The notes beneath the pieces were generated by a model. The model did no database searches. It saw only the letters and a list, made by a program, of their open reading frames with translations, and was not told the DNA's origin. A stretch of DNA of 45,778 nt, from IMG/VR virus record IMGVR_UViG_2740892271_000013. One strand, given 5' to 3'. The DNA is from a virus. Its lineage: Duplodnaviria > Heunggongvirae > Uroviricota > Caudoviricetes. Positions 3,297 to 45,778 of this stretch are shown here, one piece after another; position 1 is the stretch's first letter, and each line of letters begins with the position of its first letter. Both the position numbers and the translations under genes were made by a program.

Positions 3297-3848
3297 ATGC
3301 ATGACAATATTTGGTTTACATATAAAGCACGTATCCAAGCGCACCATCGACTAGAATGGCTTGAAAAACACTCTCAATTTATCCTCGTTTGGTATGCTAT
3401 ATTGAGTGCGGTACTTTCAATTGTAACGTTGCGATTTCCAAAGGTTCTAGGAGATAATACAGATGTCGTTGCGGCGATACTTTCAGTGGCTCTACTGGGT
3501 ATTTCTCTGATCGTATCTAACCTAGATTTTCGTGGTCGAGCAATAGCCATGAGAAGGAATTATATTGCACTACAGCGACTCTATTTTGACATTACCACCA
3601 GTCAACAGTTATCTCTTGAACAGAAAGAAAAATATTTTAATTTGCTCAATGAGGTTGAGAATCACCGTGACATAGATGATAAAATTTCAAGGGTAACTCA
3701 AGTTGGACTTAAGACGAGGATCCCCACACAAAAAGAAAAAATAATTGTTATTTTATGGATATTACTTCGAATATTTATTACTGCCGCACTTTATATACTC
3801 CCATTAATATATCTTTGGATTGACTATGACTGCAAGCAGAATTTTTAA
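3297..3848 (+). CDS. Small membrane protein with three predicted TM helices (SLATT-like effector candidate), overlaps the RT gene
   Basis: 183 aa; hydrophobic helices FILVWYAILSAVLSIVTL, VVAAILSVALLGISLIVSNL and IIVILWILLRIFITAALYILPLIYLWI, charged helical middle; AAGGA ribosome-binding site; 29-nt overlap with RT start. Confidence 0.6.
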   Translation: MHDNIWFTYKARIQAHHRLEWLEKHSQFILVWYAILSAVLSIVTLRFPKVLGDNTDVVAAILSVALLGISLIVSNLDFRGRAIAMRRNYIALQRLYFDITTSQQLSLEQKEKYFNLLNEVENHRDIDDKISRVTQVGLKTRIPTQKEKIIVILWILLRIFITAALYILPLIYLWIDYDCKQNF

Positions 3849-5196
3849 AAAGTCATTCTCGAAAAAAAATCTTCTAAAAGTATACTCTGAAAAAATCAAA
3901 GAATCAGGAGCGATTGGCATAGATCGGATTCGCCCATCAAAACTTGATTTGACAATAAAAAATGAGATCACTTTCATTTTTGAAAAGGTTAATTCTGGCA
4001 ATTACAAATTTACAGCATATAAAGAAAAATTAATATCTAAAGGCGCTAACTCTACACCCAGACAGATTTCCATACCAACTGCTAGGGACAGAATTACTCT
4101 TAGAGCTCTCTGTGAATGCCTTACGGAAATATATCCTAAGTCCAGATTAAAACTACCACATACAGTAATTGACTCATTGAAAGAAGCATTAAACAACAGT
4201 CTATATGCTGAATATGCAAAAATAGATCTTAAAAGTTTCTATCCTTCAATTGAACATAAATTGATAATTAATGCAATAAAAAATAAAATTAGAAAAAAAG
4301 AAATTAGACAGTTAATAACATCATCATTAATCGTGCCTACTGTAAGTGGAACCACAGGAAGCAAAGGTATCCCTAATAATACCAGAGGAGTACCTCAGGG
4401 ATTAGCGATATCAAACATTTTAGCTGAAATATCACTATCTAATTTCGATGATGAAATCAATAAAATGCATGACATATGGTACATGCGATACGTTGATGAC
4501 ATTCTTATTTTAACACCAAAATATCAAGCAACAAAAATAGCTTCTCATATCATTGATAAGCTTCAATCATTAAATTTAAACCCACATCCATTAAATGAAG
4601 AGAACTCAAAATCCAAAGTAGGCAGCTTGGATGAAAGTTTCAACTTTTTGGGCTACCACATAAAAAATCGAGAATTATTGATAAAACATGAGAGCATTCT
4701 TAGATTTGAGTCATCCTTAGCAAAAATTTTTACTGCATATAGACACGCTCTACTACAAGCTAAAAATAAGCGCGATAAAGAACGAGCTGTTGCATATTGT
4801 CAGTGGAAACTAAATCTTAGAATTACGGGATGTGTGTTTGAAGGTAAACGATTGGGATGGGTATCGTACTTCTCACAAATAACGTCAACAGCTCAACTTC
4901 GAGCTGTTAATCATACGATCAATAATCTTATCCGCCGATTCGGCCTTTCATCAGAAATAAAACCAAAGTCTTTGATTAAAACTTTCTATGAACTCCGCAG
5001 GGGTAGAGCGGAGACTTTTAAATACATACCTAACTTTGACAATCTACATATATCTCAGAAACGAGAAATTGTTTCTATGTGGATAGGGAAAGAGAATGAA
5101 AAAAAACTTAGCAATAGTGAAATAGAGAGAAAATTTAAATTTAAAATTGCGAAATCAGTAAAAGAGCTTGAAGAGGACATTTCAGGGATATCATAG
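3820..5196 (+). CDS. Reverse transcriptase (retron/Abi/UG-like, not intron-type)
   Basis: 458 aa; RT motifs seen directly: KIDLKSFYPSI (motif A), GVPQGLAISNILAEI (motif B), YMRYVDDILIL (YVDD, motif C), FNFLGYHI (motif E); about 160-aa C-terminal extension of unknown function. Confidence 0.85.
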   Translation: MTMTASRIFKKSFSKKNLLKVYSEKIKESGAIGIDRIRPSKLDLTIKNEITFIFEKVNSGNYKFTAYKEKLISKGANSTPRQISIPTARDRITLRALCECLTEIYPKSRLKLPHTVIDSLKEALNNSLYAEYAKIDLKSFYPSIEHKLIINAIKNKIRKKEIRQLITSSLIVPTVSGTTGSKGIPNNTRGVPQGLAISNILAEISLSNFDDEINKMHDIWYMRYVDDILILTPKYQATKIASHIIDKLQSLNLNPHPLNEENSKSKVGSLDESFNFLGYHIKNRELLIKHESILRFESSLAKIFTAYRHALLQAKNKRDKERAVAYCQWKLNLRITGCVFEGKRLGWVSYFSQITSTAQLRAVNHTINNLIRRFGLSSEIKPKSLIKTFYELRRGRAETFKYIPNFDNLHISQKREIVSMWIGKENEKKLSNSEIERKFKFKIAKSVKELEEDISGIS

Positions 5197-9576: not shown

Positions 9577-9603
9577 CAAAAAAGCCCGCCTGAACCGGCG
9601 GGC
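9577..9603 (-). terminator. Rho-independent terminator downstream of lom
   Basis: Stem AGCCCGCC/GGCGGGCT with 6-nt loop, followed on the minus strand by UUUUUUGUG. Confidence 0.6.
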
Positions 9604-9630
9604 TGTCATAACACTGTGTTACCTGGCTAA

Positions 9631-10230
9631 TCAGAATTTATAACCGACACCCACGATGAAACCGTCAGTGCGCCAGTCGCCACTGCCGGAGCCTTCATAA
9701 GCAATATCAATGGCCACGGATTCGGTCGGGTTAAACTGCACGCCAGCTCCCCACGCCAGAGACGTGTTGCTGTGGCGACCGTCATCACTTCCGGTCAGCA
9801 CATCGTGCGTTTTCCCCTTGTTGTCAGTTACGCGAAGATAATCCCCGGAGAAAGTCGACACACGGCTGTAAGCCACACCCGCCATCGCATACGCGCTGAA
9901 CCATTCATTCACGCGCACAGACGGCCCCGCCATTACGCTGAACCAGCGGTTACGAACGGAATCTTCATGCCAGCGGGTATCGCTGTAACGGGTCAGCTGG
10001 CGATTCTTGTCTCCTGCATAGCTGAATGACGTCACCAGCCCCAGTGTGTCCGTAAACTCATAACGGTATTTCACGTTAATCCCGTTCAGATCATCACTGC
10101 CGGGGACGTTCGTCGAGGCATGAAGATACCCCGCGCTCAGCGTGGACTGATGTTCAGACGCCCATGCAGGCGCACCGGATACGGCCAGACAAATGGCTGC
10201 GGACAAAATTGCTGCACAAACTTTACGCAT
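9631..10230 (-). CDS. lom: Outer membrane protein Lom (Ail/Lom family moron)
   Basis: 199 aa with signal peptide MRKVCAAILSAAICLAVSGAPAWA, beta-barrel-like alternating pattern, C-terminal GYKF; position between J and stf as in lambda; GAGAGG ribosome-binding site. Confidence 0.85.
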   Translation of the reverse strand: MRKVCAAILSAAICLAVSGAPAWASEHQSTLSAGYLHASTNVPGSDDLNGINVKYRYEFTDTLGLVTSFSYAGDKNRQLTRYSDTRWHEDSVRNRWFSVMAGPSVRVNEWFSAYAMAGVAYSRVSTFSGDYLRVTDNKGKTHDVLTGSDDGRHSNTSLAWGAGVQFNPTESVAIDIAYEGSGSGDWRTDGFIVGVGYKF

Positions 10231-42415: not shown

Positions 42416-43240
42416 ATGTCTCAGAACTTAGACGCAACCGCAATTAATCAAATCCATGCCCTTATTTCTGCTCAGGGTGTTAATGAAATTATCAGTAAGA
42501 TTGGTGCCGATGCTGTGGCATTGCCTGAGAATTTCCGCATTCATGATCTGGAAAAATTAAATTTAAATCGTTTCCGTTTCCGTGGTGCGCTTTCCACTGC
42601 CAGCATCGATGACTTTACTCGTTATTCTAAAGATCTTGCAGATGAAGGCACCCGCTGCTTTATCGATGCTGATAATATGCGTGCCGTCAGTGTTCTTAAC
42701 CTGGGTACTATTGATGAACCAGGTCACGCAGATAACACCGCCACTCTCAAACTGAAAAAGACAGCTCCGTTCTCTGCTCTGTTGTCTGTTAATGGCGAGC
42801 GTAACTCCCAGAAGTCACTGGCAGAATGGATTGAAGACTGGGCCGACTACCTTGTGGGCTTTGATGCTAATGGTGACGCCATTCAGGCAACCAAAGCGGC
42901 TGCGGCGATCCGTAAAATCACAATTGAAGCGAACCAGACCGCTGATTTTGAAGATAATGACTTCAGCGGCAAACGCTCCCTGATGGAGTCTGTCGAAGCG
43001 AAGACCAAAGACATTATGCCAGTGGCATTTGAATTTAAATGCGTTCCGTTTGAAGGTCTGAAAGAACGTCCGTTTAAATTACGCCTCAGCATTATCACTG
43101 GCGATCGTCCTGTACTGGTTCTGCGCATTATTCAGCTGGAAGCGGTACAGGAAGAAATGGCTAACGAATTTCGTGATCTGCTTGTTGAGAAATTCAAAGA
43201 CAGCAAAGTAGAAACCTTTATTGGTACTTTCACCGCCTGA
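42416..43240 (+). CDS. Early-left protein, YfdQ-like (DUF2303-type, uncharacterised)
   Basis: 274-aa ORF immediately downstream of the YfdP-like gene; size and neighbourhood match the CPS-53-type pair. Confidence 0.5.
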
Positions 43241-43253
43241 TTTCATTACTGCA

Positions 43254-43274
43254 AATGCCCCTGCGGGGGCATTT
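43254..43274 (+). terminator. Hairpin (weak terminator) after the YfdQ-like gene
   Basis: AAATGCCCC-tgcg-GGGGCATTT; no long U-tract. Confidence 0.35.
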
Positions 43275-43416
43275 ACGGAAGCGATAATTTTAACTATTGC
43301 CGCCCCTATAAAGAACCATTAAACAATAACGTGACGTAGCTATTGATAGTAAATGAAGCACTTGCAAAATAATTGCATTGCGTATATATACACACATGTG
43401 TTGTATTACAGCGATA

Positions 43417-44211
43417 ATGGTAAAGCAAATGATTAACTCTGAAGCAATTGAGCAACTAATGTGGCTATGGTCCTTATTTGACATTAAATTCTTATCTATT
43501 CTTGCCGCTGCCTTCACTATATATTTTGGCGTGCAAAAAATATCAAAAAAGGTGACAGTGTCGTATTCAGCAAATGCAAGTAGAATATATGACATGCATA
43601 TATCAACCATAATCCTGAATAATAAAAGAGATAATGCAATTGCTATATCTTCAATCAATATGGAGGTTGAAGGTAAAGGGATACTACAAGTTATTAAATT
43701 TGACTCCCCTCTTCTTTTAAAGAACTATGATTCTTTAAAAGTTGAACCACCAAAATTTAGCAGCCTTTACAATAATGATGGCGTAGTTAAGTTAGATATT
43801 TCTGATAAGTTTCATTTTTATATAATCACGACATCTGGAGATGAAATTAAATGTATTTCTGAAAATAAATATGTAGCACCAAACATGGAAAACAAAATAG
43901 CTACAGACATAAGAAAATTTAATGGCATTGTCTTAACAAACAGAATGTCTTATATTTTTTTCTATGCAAATGACAACGGAGAGAAATACTGCATAATAGA
44001 TGTTTCATTGTTCATAAATGGTGACAACCCATTTCATTTTAATTTTTTAAAAGAAGATGAATTAAGAGATTTTTCTAGCATCCTTATTAGTTACGGATAT
44101 CACCAACAGTTTAAAAGTTATGCATTGTTTAAAATAGACAACCATCTTGCTCCTTCTTTGGTTTTAAATAAATCAATGATAGAAAATAATATTATTGAAA
44201 TGAATAAGTAA
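43417..44211 (+). CDS. AT-rich moron: membrane-anchored protein of unknown function (candidate superinfection-exclusion or abortive-infection factor)
   Basis: About 265 aa; N-terminal TM helix LMWLWSLFDIKFLSILAAAFTIYFGV then Asn/Lys/Ile-rich domain; GC content far below the flanks; own TTGCAA-N17-TATATA promoter candidate (43362-43390); start codon uncertain (43396, 43417 or 43429). Confidence 0.55.
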   Translation: MVKQMINSEAIEQLMWLWSLFDIKFLSILAAAFTIYFGVQKISKKVTVSYSANASRIYDMHISTIILNNKRDNAIAISSINMEVEGKGILQVIKFDSPLLLKNYDSLKVEPPKFSSLYNNDGVVKLDISDKFHFYIITTSGDEIKCISENKYVAPNMENKIATDIRKFNGIVLTNRMSYIFFYANDNGEKYCIIDVSLFINGDNPFHFNFLKEDELRDFSSILISYGYHQQFKSYALFKIDNHLAPSLVLNKSMIENNIIEMNK

Positions 44212-44247
44212 CTCACCGGGTGCAGCCGGTTATGATGGAGAAATGAT

Positions 44248-44529
44248 ATGAATACCTTGTTTTTACTGATGGCTGAATTCAATACCCCAAACATTGAACT
44301 CTCAGCAGTTAGTCAAAAATACTTTGGTATGAGTCCAGCCACAGCAGAAGCAAAAGCAAACGCTTGTAAGTTGCCTGTACCTACATATCGCATCGGTACA
44401 TCACAAAAAGCAAAACGTTGCATCAATATTCAGGATCTTGCGGAATACATAGACAAAAGACGAGAAGAAGGACGTATCGAGTGGGAACAGGTCAGAACAG
44501 GCAAACAGAAGGGCAAAGAACATCACTAA
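44248..44529 (+). CDS. Small DNA-binding protein, PrtN/excisionase-like candidate
   Basis: 93 aa with GGAG ribosome-binding site; basic C-terminus; weak resemblance to excisionase/PrtN-type winged-helix proteins. Confidence 0.4.
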   Translation: MNTLFLLMAEFNTPNIELSAVSQKYFGMSPATAEAKANACKLPVPTYRIGTSQKAKRCINIQDLAEYIDKRREEGRIEWEQVRTGKQKGKEHH

Positions 44530-44559
44530 AGAAAAAACCCGCCTAAAGGCGGGTTTTCA
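44530..44559. terminator. Bidirectional rho-independent terminator
   Basis: AAAAAA-CCCGCC-taaa-GGCGGG-TTTTC; serves converging plus and minus strand units. Confidence 0.6.
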
Positions 44560-44575
44560 AAAAGCACCAGCTATG

Positions 44576-44749
44576 ATCATGCTGCTTTGCGACGACGAAG
44601 CTTACCCTGCTGCTCTTTACCAGAGACAGTAGCGTGAGTGAACGCATTAGGAGCAGCCTTCATCAGAACTTCAACAGCAGCACCCATACCTGCGAATGCT
44701 TTCATTGTGTCGAACTTAACCTGTGGCTTGGTTGCTTTTTGATCTTCCA
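44576..44749 (-). CDS. Small hypothetical protein (57 aa), last gene of the minus-strand cassette
   Basis: Hand-translated MEDQKATKPQVKFDTMKAFAGMGAAVEVLMKAAPNAFTHATVSGKEQQGKLRRRKAA; GGAG ribosome-binding site 6-7 nt upstream; followed by the terminator; below the ORF-track size cutoff. Confidence 0.45.
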
Positions 44750-44789
44750 TAGAAAACTCCAGAAGCTATACCGAAACAATTCCTGTTGT

Positions 44790-45209
44790 TTACTCATCAT
44801 CAATAGATGATACGCAATATTTATTTTTAAATTTAAGGTTCTTTGGCGTAACTTCATCAGATATATCAAAACCGTCCAGAATTCTATTGAATGTAGCTTC
44901 TGGCATATCATCATGAACGGAAATCTCACCCGATCGCTGCTTTCTAACCATGTTATCCACTCGCCAAATTATAGCTTCAGCGTAAACAACATAACTTGGA
45001 TGCTTGATAAAGCGATGATCACCAGAATTCAAGACGCAAGACGGATCGTGGGGGACACCATCCTTGATACTAGAAATATTAACAACTAAAACACAATAAC
45101 AATCGTTAACGGGGTAATAAACAGGATCATTACAAATCACATGAAGATGATTGCATGGCCCAGTTGGGGCAAGCACAGTTCCTTTCCTGTATGGCTGATA
45201 ATCCGTCAT
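44790..45209 (-). CDS. Hypothetical protein, candidate toxin partner of the Panacea-like gene
   Basis: 139-aa ORF whose ATG overlaps the upstream stop (ATGA); Cys/His-containing, no recognised family. Confidence 0.5.
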   Translation of the reverse strand: MTDYQPYRKGTVLAPTGPCNHLHVICNDPVYYPVNDCYCVLVVNISSIKDGVPHDPSCVLNSGDHRFIKHPSYVVYAEAIIWRVDNMVRKQRSGEISVHDDMPEATFNRILDGFDISDEVTPKNLKFKNKYCVSSIDDE

Positions 45210-45778
45210 GATAATTGCAAAGAAAATTCCTTAAGTTTCTGAGATTCTTCCATTTTGCCAATTATACGATTAGCCTCATCCTCGCTTTTACCCTCACTGA
45301 TCAGCATTTCTTTCAGGTCTATAGGCTTACGAGAATTGCCAGGATTGTGCCACTCTGGACAAACGCTTTCTAAATGCGTCATGTTTGCGAGATCAAATCG
45401 GTTCATATGCCCATACAGAGAATAGATTTCATCTAAAATCCGGATATCTGCACGGCTCAACTCATCAAAGACCTCGTCTGCATCCATTTCCCTCGGATCT
45501 GAACGCAACAACACATCATGCCCGTTCGTCTCTATCAGGTTGTACCAGTAGTCACCAATACCTTCAGCCTTACCACGAATCAAGTTCAGCGTATTCGACA
45601 TGACTGGACCAAATTTCATAGAGTAAAGGCTATCTTCGCCGATCATCCTGCCATGCTTCAAAATCGACTTGCGGTTAGACAGATAGAGCAGCTTCATCAA
45701 TTTCAGATATGCCATGCGCCCACCTCGCTTAAGAAGTAGGTATGCAGCCATTTGAGCTACTTTTTCTTCGCAAAACAT
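45206..45778 (-). CDS. Panacea-domain (DUF4065, SocA/GepA-like) antitoxin candidate; may be 5'-truncated by the window edge
   Basis: 190 aa; N-terminal pattern AYLKLMKLLYLSNRKSILKHGRMIGEDSLYSMKFGPVMSNTL fits the Panacea signature (L-KL-KLLYL ... GPV); ORF reaches the last base of the window. Confidence 0.55.
   Translation of the reverse strand: MFCEEKVAQMAAYLLLKRGGRMAYLKLMKLLYLSNRKSILKHGRMIGEDSLYSMKFGPVMSNTLNLIRGKAEGIGDYWYNLIETNGHDVLLRSDPREMDADEVFDELSRADIRILDEIYSLYGHMNRFDLANMTHLESVCPEWHNPGNSRKPIDLKEMLISEGKSEDEANRIIGKMEESQKLKEFSLQLS

Follow-up and report, generated by a model that had tools for sequence, protein, structure and literature searches.

Organization of the locus

The DNA considered here is a stretch of 45,778 nucleotides (nt), referred to below as the window, from the Caudoviricetes record IMGVR_UViG_2740892271_000013 of IMG/VR; it spans pspG, dusA and a complete lambdoid prophage of the CPS-53/KpLE1 type, up to the gene panA. 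Open reading frames (ORFs) and the sequence itself place three co-oriented genes on the minus strand at positions 44533-45778, which an earlier note on this DNA, made without database searches, had proposed as a candidate toxin-antitoxin or defence cassette. The first gene, panA (45206-45778, minus), encodes a 190-amino-acid (aa) antitoxin candidate with a stand-alone Panacea domain (PF13274), and the second, panT (44790-45209, minus), a 139-aa toxin candidate with a MazF/Kid/CcdB-like fold that we place in the T6 family of Kurata et al. 2022. The third gene (44577-44750, minus) encodes a 57-aa protein of phrog_2741 and is treated here as a neighbour outside the toxin-antitoxin pair. We consider it likely, with good confidence, that 44790-45778 (minus) is a type II toxin-antitoxin operon of the PanA/PanT kind, carrying a MazF-fold toxin of cluster T6. 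Judged from its sequence, the pair has all the traits of a toxin-antitoxin module with PanA as the neutralising partner, located at a prophage end.

Several details of the unit were correctly described in the earlier note. The stop codon of panA and the start codon of panT overlap in an ATGA (45206-45209, minus), an arrangement indicative of translational coupling, and the 57-aa gene has its own GGAG site (44757-44760, minus), six bases 5' of its ATG. The unit ends at an intrinsic terminator hairpin (44533-44558, minus), recognised both by a terminator scan and in the sequence, with 11 pairs, a GC-rich stem and a T-run on the minus strand. This hairpin is common, back-to-back, to a convergent PrtN-type excisionase gene (44248-44529, plus). 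An Rfam scan of 43000-45778 returned sub-threshold matches only; those to rnk_pseudo, RNAI, sroH and P9, within 44525-44628, all centre on this bidirectional hairpin and are best read as chance matches.

The same note had expected both the true start of the first gene and its promoter beyond position 45778, which holds for the promoter alone. The ATG of panA forms the final three bases of the window, and since the identical 573-nt gene is annotated by RefSeq/PGAP in E. coli A14 (WP_000458583.1, "Panacea domain-containing protein") and phage Lys8385Vzw has a panA gene of equal length, panA is complete at the window end and its true start lies within it. In A14, the 250 nt 5' of panA contain a GAGG ribosome-binding site and a candidate promoter, TTGACC-17-TAAACT, about 130 nt before the panA ATG and outside the window, although a match to the consensus is no proof of function. 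All three genes are also carried by the phages Lys8385Vzw and SKA5.

The identification of the first gene as a Panacea gene, made in the earlier note from the letters alone, was borne out by a Pfam scan: the 190-aa protein matches PF13274 (SocA_Panacea) with an E-value of 1.8e-18 and 67.9 bits, against a gathering cutoff of 25.7, and the alignment covers residues 27-137 of PanA and positions 1-109 of the 113 in the profile. PanA has no N-terminal accessory domain and carries a C-terminal extension of about 50 aa. The C-terminal motif H..CPEW.(D/N)P..S..PI is kept in all eight of the partner antitoxins aligned. In Pseudomonas reinekei, the PanA whose gene lies before that of a T6 toxin is related to it at 42% identity (E 8e-41).

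For the 139-aa protein, searches of Pfam, NCBIfam, PADLOC and PDB sequences gave no match. A homologue search recovered 62 proteins, mostly from Enterobacterales with others from Vibrio and Shewanella, every named one of which is called "hypothetical". The family is large: when its profile was run against 1.84 billion cluster representatives, 2,678 passed E <= 1e-3 and 915 passed E <= 1e-10. Across 110 diverse relatives H21 is invariant, and at least 90% of them share L22, V43, D55, C58, G63, H65, F67, S72, Y76, G113 and S117; the E. coli PanT possesses every family-invariant residue.

The homologue alignment also bears on the start of the gene. The PGAP/RefSeq model of the toxin (WP_014640052.1) has 128 aa and begins at an internal GTG (positions 9591-9977 of the A14 locus, L001), whereas panT is 420 nt long in phage records. 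Because residues 1-11 are conserved, with P6 and G10 invariant, and because of the ATGA coupling (region 45176-45209, minus), the sequence comparison identifies the ATG at 45209 as the real start of panT. The 139-aa form is thus right and the RefSeq model too short, so that the annotated toxin start is corrected from 128 to 139 aa.

Assignment to cluster T6, predicted fold and proposed action

The Panacea domain was named, and its partners were catalogued, by Kurata et al. 2022 (PNAS 119:e2102212119; PMC8832971), who required a conserved two-gene architecture with the partner no more than 100 nt away in at least two species. In the examined part of their Dataset S1, cluster T6 bears the HHpred label "EndoA/PemK/MazF-family RNAses", its gene order is antitoxin then toxin with an overlap that is usually -4 or -1, and its range takes in Pasteurellales, Halomonas, Pseudomonas, Proteus, Pantoea, Photorhabdus and others (PMC8832971). 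The T6 entries seen there include Proteus vulgaris FDAARGOS_556 (GCF_003812525.1), P. reinekei BS3776 and, adjoining the latter, the validated pair of Pseudomonas moraviensis (PMC8832971). That pair (toxin WP_083201923.1, antitoxin WP_083354365.1) is among nine validated in the study: its PanT is toxic in E. coli, is neutralised by its PanA and co-purifies with it, and the toxin selectively blocks incorporation of 35S-methionine, which is to say that protein synthesis is inhibited (PMC8832971).

Two toxin homologues, and the PanA that accompanies one of them, connect PanT to this cluster. The first homologue (P0017), with 61-63% identity to PanT, is a protein of Proteus vulgaris FDAARGOS_556 (GCA_003812525.1) whose gene lies directly 3' of a 188-aa Panacea gene with a 4-nt overlap, and it matches the T6 entry for that genome. 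The second (P0078), a profile match at E 2.7e-32, falls into one 90%-identity cluster with SAMN04490202_2415 of P. reinekei, a protein to which PanT itself aligns by BLASTP with 36% identity over 125 ungapped residues (E 2e-29). The PanA encoded upstream of this P. reinekei toxin begins MIFSEQKVAQ, and the same ten residues were added to the P. moraviensis PanA by the authors of the survey (PMC8832971). By these sequence relationships the 139-aa protein is a member of the catalogued toxin cluster T6. The suggestion in the earlier note, whose reader recognised no match for the partner, that it could be a new toxin family is therefore not upheld: the pair is an E. coli prophage copy of the PanAT family described in 2022, from a cluster that has an experimentally validated member.

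Neither WP_000458583.1 nor WP_014640052.1 was found in the text of the paper or in the examined part of its supplements, where the E. coli entries of Dataset S1 belong to clusters T1 and T3 only (PMC8832971). A 2026 survey of Photorhabdus toxin-antitoxin systems makes no mention of PanA, the matches to that string being the software name PanACoTA (PMC13617665).

An AlphaFold2 model of PanT, built from a 35-sequence alignment, reached a mean predicted local distance difference test (pLDDT) of 91.1 and a predicted TM-score (pTM) of 0.84. When this model was compared with the PDB by Foldseek, the top 50 matches were all chains of MazF/PemK-family toxins, with probabilities of 0.94-1.0 and target-normalised TM-scores of 0.52-0.66, and its best viral structure matches were a "PemK-like protein" and an "Endoribonuclease". 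The modelled protein has the SH3-like barrel of the MazF/CcdB type. On the strength of the model, PanT is assigned the MazF fold, while a placement in PF02452 by sequence is unsupported.

These results suggest how the pair might act. PanA and PanT would be made together from the candidate promoter about 130 nt past the window end, and PanA would bind PanT directly and keep it inactive, as neutralisation and pull-down showed for the P. moraviensis homologue. Were PanA lost or displaced, free PanT would be expected to halt protein synthesis, in line with the 35S-methionine result obtained with that homologue, and the fold suggests that it would probably do so by cutting RNA, whether mRNA, tRNA or rRNA. 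The invariant H21, together with D55, C58 and H65, may form the active site. As to what the pair does for its carrier, abortive-infection defence or retention of the prophage is the most plausible role, and we propose it tentatively.

A number of points weigh against this reading as a whole. The E. coli pair is known here from its sequence and a predicted model, and what connects it with the validated toxin of P. moraviensis is membership of one cluster and similarity to the P. reinekei member, not a direct alignment. The P. moraviensis toxin was absent among the 120 listed matches of a profile search in a set of 5.8 billion proteins, and a genome scan with P0078 gave no match; a scan with the PanT-family alignment recovered P. 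reinekei MT1 and Pseudomonas sp. KK4 only. A Pfam scan gave no PF02452 match for PanT at E <= 1, a phmmer search and a profile search of the PDB gave no significant match and no MazF, and hhalign comparison of a 110-sequence PanT alignment with MazF, Kid and a 4-sequence MazF profile gave probabilities of 0.3-0.6%. Since the PF02452 and hhalign comparisons are non-significant, the assignment of ribonuclease (RNase) chemistry derives from the fold. PanA has no DNA-binding domain that would point to how the operon is regulated. As regards a defence role, none of the three proteins matches PADLOC-DB v2 at E <= 0.1. Finally, only 9 of the 25 PanAT candidates assayed by Kurata et al. were confirmed as genuine toxin-antitoxin pairs (PMC8832971), and the examined part of Dataset S1 scores one cluster T1 Panacea pair from an E. 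coli prophage as 'not Toxic' (PMC8832971).

The divergence from known MazF-fold toxins could go further than sequence. The catalytic residues of MazF are Arg29 and Thr52, and those of Kid are Arg73, Asp75 and His17. The conserved polar set of the PanT family consists instead of H21 (invariant) and D55, C58 and H65 (each at least 90%), although a residue alignment to MazF or Kid is unreliable. One might accordingly picture the T6 PanT as keeping the MazF scaffold but housing another catalytic or metal-binding centre (His21, Asp55, Cys58, His65), acting on a target or by a chemistry unlike that of the MazF/Kid RNases, in a pair that serves abortive-infection defence and whose stand-alone Panacea domain senses a phage cue. 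We regard this combination as fairly unlikely; if true, it would offer a tractable E. coli model for the trigger of Panacea antitoxins.

The low confirmation rate of the survey and the non-toxic T1 pair would also agree with the E. coli copy being inactive as a toxin-antitoxin system, its 139-aa protein non-toxic in the host and serving another role or none. Against this stand the intactness of both genes, near full length in 206 of the 208 carrier genomes, the complete set of invariant residues in the E. coli toxin, the retention of gene order and ATGA coupling across bacterial classes, and the toxicity of a member of the same cluster in E. coli, the assay host (PMC8832971). We judge inactivity to be quite improbable. 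There is, in our estimate, only a slim chance that PanT is a CcdB-like DNA gyrase poison, or has some other non-RNase activity on the MazF/CcdB scaffold, instead of being a translation-blocking RNase.

A two-gene unit in an exchangeable cassette

We compared the genomic context of the PanT homologues, and in all cases examined the toxin gene sits directly 3' of a Panacea gene of 165-188 aa, the single 165-aa call being a shorter gene model of a 186-aa protein. Such Panacea-then-toxin loci occur in Proteus, Vibrio, Methylococcaceae, Bdellovibrionales, a second E. coli element and two Pseudomonas genomes. The spacing of the two genes ranges from a 4-nt overlap, found also in the Proteus and Methylococcaceae loci, to a 5-nt gap, well inside the two-gene definition of Kurata et al. 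The surroundings of the homologous pairs are unrelated (prophage tail regions, integrative elements, housekeeping genes), and neither the 57-aa gene nor any other conserved third gene is present at any PanA-T6 locus examined. The Proteus vulgaris FDAARGOS_556 chromosome (CP033736.1) carries at least two copies of the pair, at 1.98 and 2.05 megabases, with identical toxin sequence; both adjoin prophage tail-fibre genes, and the listing for the pair names three protein accessions from this genome.

The 57-aa protein, for its part, belongs to phrog_2741 (E 8.4e-36) and is confined to Enterobacterales; no Pfam, NCBIfam, PADLOC or PDB match was obtained, and its AlphaFold2 model is poor (pLDDT 60.7). 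Its gene occurs in 562 complete E. coli genomes, 354 of them without the PanAT pair, as well as without the pair in phage mEp460, E. coli O157:H7, Salmonella, Enterobacter and Hafnia. Elsewhere the gene before it encodes a phrog_4350 protein of 177-179 aa, and the two genes are found at various positions in prophages. This protein has no Pfam, PADLOC or PDB match, and the C-terminal half of the 177-aa form looks GNAT-like by eye; together the two genes may be an uncharacterised mobile two-gene moron. In Hafnia, the 179-aa and 57-aa pair lies directly 3' of a gene for a 319-352-aa protein with a RelA_SpoT domain, possibly a toxic alarmone synthetase, and 5' of phage holin genes.

The layout in the window could nonetheless be taken for a three-component system, with the 57-aa protein as a functional partner of PanA and PanT, be it a regulator, a chaperone or a second toxin. 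The gap between panT and the 57-aa gene measures only 39 nt and contains no promoter-like or terminator-like site on the minus strand, the sole terminator comes after all three genes, and three-gene architectures were permitted in the screen of Kurata et al. (PMC8832971). However, the PanA-T6 loci of the other lineages have no conserved third gene, the 57-aa gene is found in 562 E. coli genomes against 208 for the pair, it has another habitual partner in the phrog_4350 gene, and a break in homology 10-13 nt 5' of its ATG separates it from the pair. We find a three-component system highly improbable and rejected it on the grounds of the unconserved third gene, the alternative partner and the position of the breakpoint. 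The unit is a two-gene one, of which the 57-aa gene, counted into the cassette in the earlier note, is no component; as a neighbour it is probably co-transcribed with panAT here.

The breakpoint was located by alignment with E. coli O157:H7 and phage mEp460, in which the PanAT allele parts from the 177-aa allele at about 44761, just 5' of the GGAG of the 57-aa gene, and blastn matches in the 562 genomes end at query positions 221-224. The spacer 3' of panT (44761-44789, minus) thus has the right-hand cassette junction at its edge, where homology to the alternative allele begins. The two alleles rejoin about 190 nt past the window end, at conserved sequence by the attachment site. Because they diverge and rejoin at these points, the alignments indicate that a PanAT cassette of about 1.2 kb, its own upstream region included, replaced the 177-aa gene and left the 57-aa gene behind. 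The 57-aa gene is then a leftover of the 177-aa and 57-aa module, probably read through from the panAT promoter. Among 5,426 complete E. coli genomes the PanAT pair is present in 208 (about 4%).

The att-proximal boundary of the swappable slot is marked by the conserved sequence GGTTCCCAATAGGCTCCCACAAAGT.TATAACTA.TTGTTTTTCAAAAACGGTACATCCTATCGAGCA, at about 10770-10850 in L001, 4530-4610 in L025 and 4450-4620 in L003. In phage mEp460, additional GGTTCCC/GGGAACC repeats lie close to int and may serve as arm sites for the integrase.

Relation to known systems and prophage setting

The closest counterpart is the P. moraviensis PanA-PanT pair. In each, a stand-alone Panacea antitoxin of about 185-190 aa that lacks an N-terminal domain comes first, and immediately after it (overlap -1 or -4) comes a toxin of about 130-140 aa that has no Pfam or CDD match and a MazF-like structure. 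They differ in setting: the P. moraviensis pair is marked 'NotPhage' in the examined part of Dataset S1, whereas the E. coli pair is carried by a lambdoid prophage of the inducible type, in a cargo slot beside attR in dusA. The pair is also set apart from MazEF and Kid-Kis (PemIK). No sequence relationship of their toxins to PanT is detectable, PanT is extended at its C-terminus by two helices (residues 104-131), the polar residues conserved in its family are H21, D55, C58 and H65 in place of Arg29 and Thr52 of MazF, and PanA is a globular Panacea protein, while the MazEF and Kid-Kis antitoxins are DNA binders of the AbrB or ribbon-helix-helix type with a disordered tail.

With the type VI system SocAB of Caulobacter the pair shares an antitoxin with PF13274, a Pfam family named after SocA, and PanA has a weak NCBIfam SocA_antitoxin match (E 0.043); yet we give almost no credence to a SocAB-like scheme, in which PanA would hand the toxin to ClpXP for degradation instead of blocking it, and rejected it, since PanA scores 13.5 bits against the cutoff of 190 for the SocA equivalog (NF047745), PanT has the MazF fold and nothing links it with SocB, a PanT of the family is known to be neutralised directly by its PanA and to form a stable complex with it (PMC8832971), and stand-alone Panacea domains neutralise by direct binding in the cases tested (PMC8832971, PMC10440598).

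A looser analogy can be drawn to CapRel(SJ46) and other prophage-borne toxin-antitoxin defence modules, which the pair resembles in being carried by a prophage and may resemble in an effector directed at translation and in a possible sensor role of the antitoxin. It differs from CapRel(SJ46) in its toxin type, in consisting of two proteins where CapRel is one fused protein, and in having no PADLOC match.

The PanA/PanT assignment brings into E. coli a described but barely studied T6 PanT family, with one validated member and a mechanism taken from its fold, and leaves the current understanding of toxin-antitoxin systems unchanged. E. coli is the best-equipped experimental host, and the prophage also exists as free phage (Lys8385Vzw, SKA5). 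The trigger of the Panacea antitoxin, the target of the toxin and the protection that a prophage PanAT pair may give against other phages are directly testable in the E. coli copy.

The position of the cassette at the prophage end, as the earlier note gave it, is confirmed. The integrase gene (1668-2765) adjoins dusA, and the PanAT cassette lies at the far end of the prophage from it, about 250 nt from a duplicated 5' fragment of dusA. Its slot is the interval between the attachment site (attR, in dusA) and the excisionase gene; correspondingly, Lys8385Vzw and SKA5, as free phages, have the cassette between their excisionase and integrase genes. This attachment site-excisionase slot of dusA prophages swaps cargo cassettes at precise junctions.

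At the opposite end of the prophage, a gene for a SLATT-domain protein (3297-3848, plus; PADLOC RTasSLATT, E 1.5e-56) and one for a UG17 reverse transcriptase (3820-5196, plus; RT_UG17, E 1.1e-158) form a candidate defence system of the defence-associated reverse transcriptase (DRT) class, by the integrase gene and dinI. A role in defence or competition would fit the presence of cargo at each end of the prophage.

The AT-rich moron named in the earlier note as the immediate neighbour is present but not adjacent, the excisionase gene at 44248-44529 intervening. It corresponds to an ORF at 43378-44211 (plus; 27-32% GC) between yfdQ and the excisionase gene, whose 260-277-aa product belongs to phrog_14996 (E 2.9e-178) and gave no Pfam or PADLOC match. 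In related phages, an exonuclease gene and ead/Ea22 genes occupy the position of this ORF.

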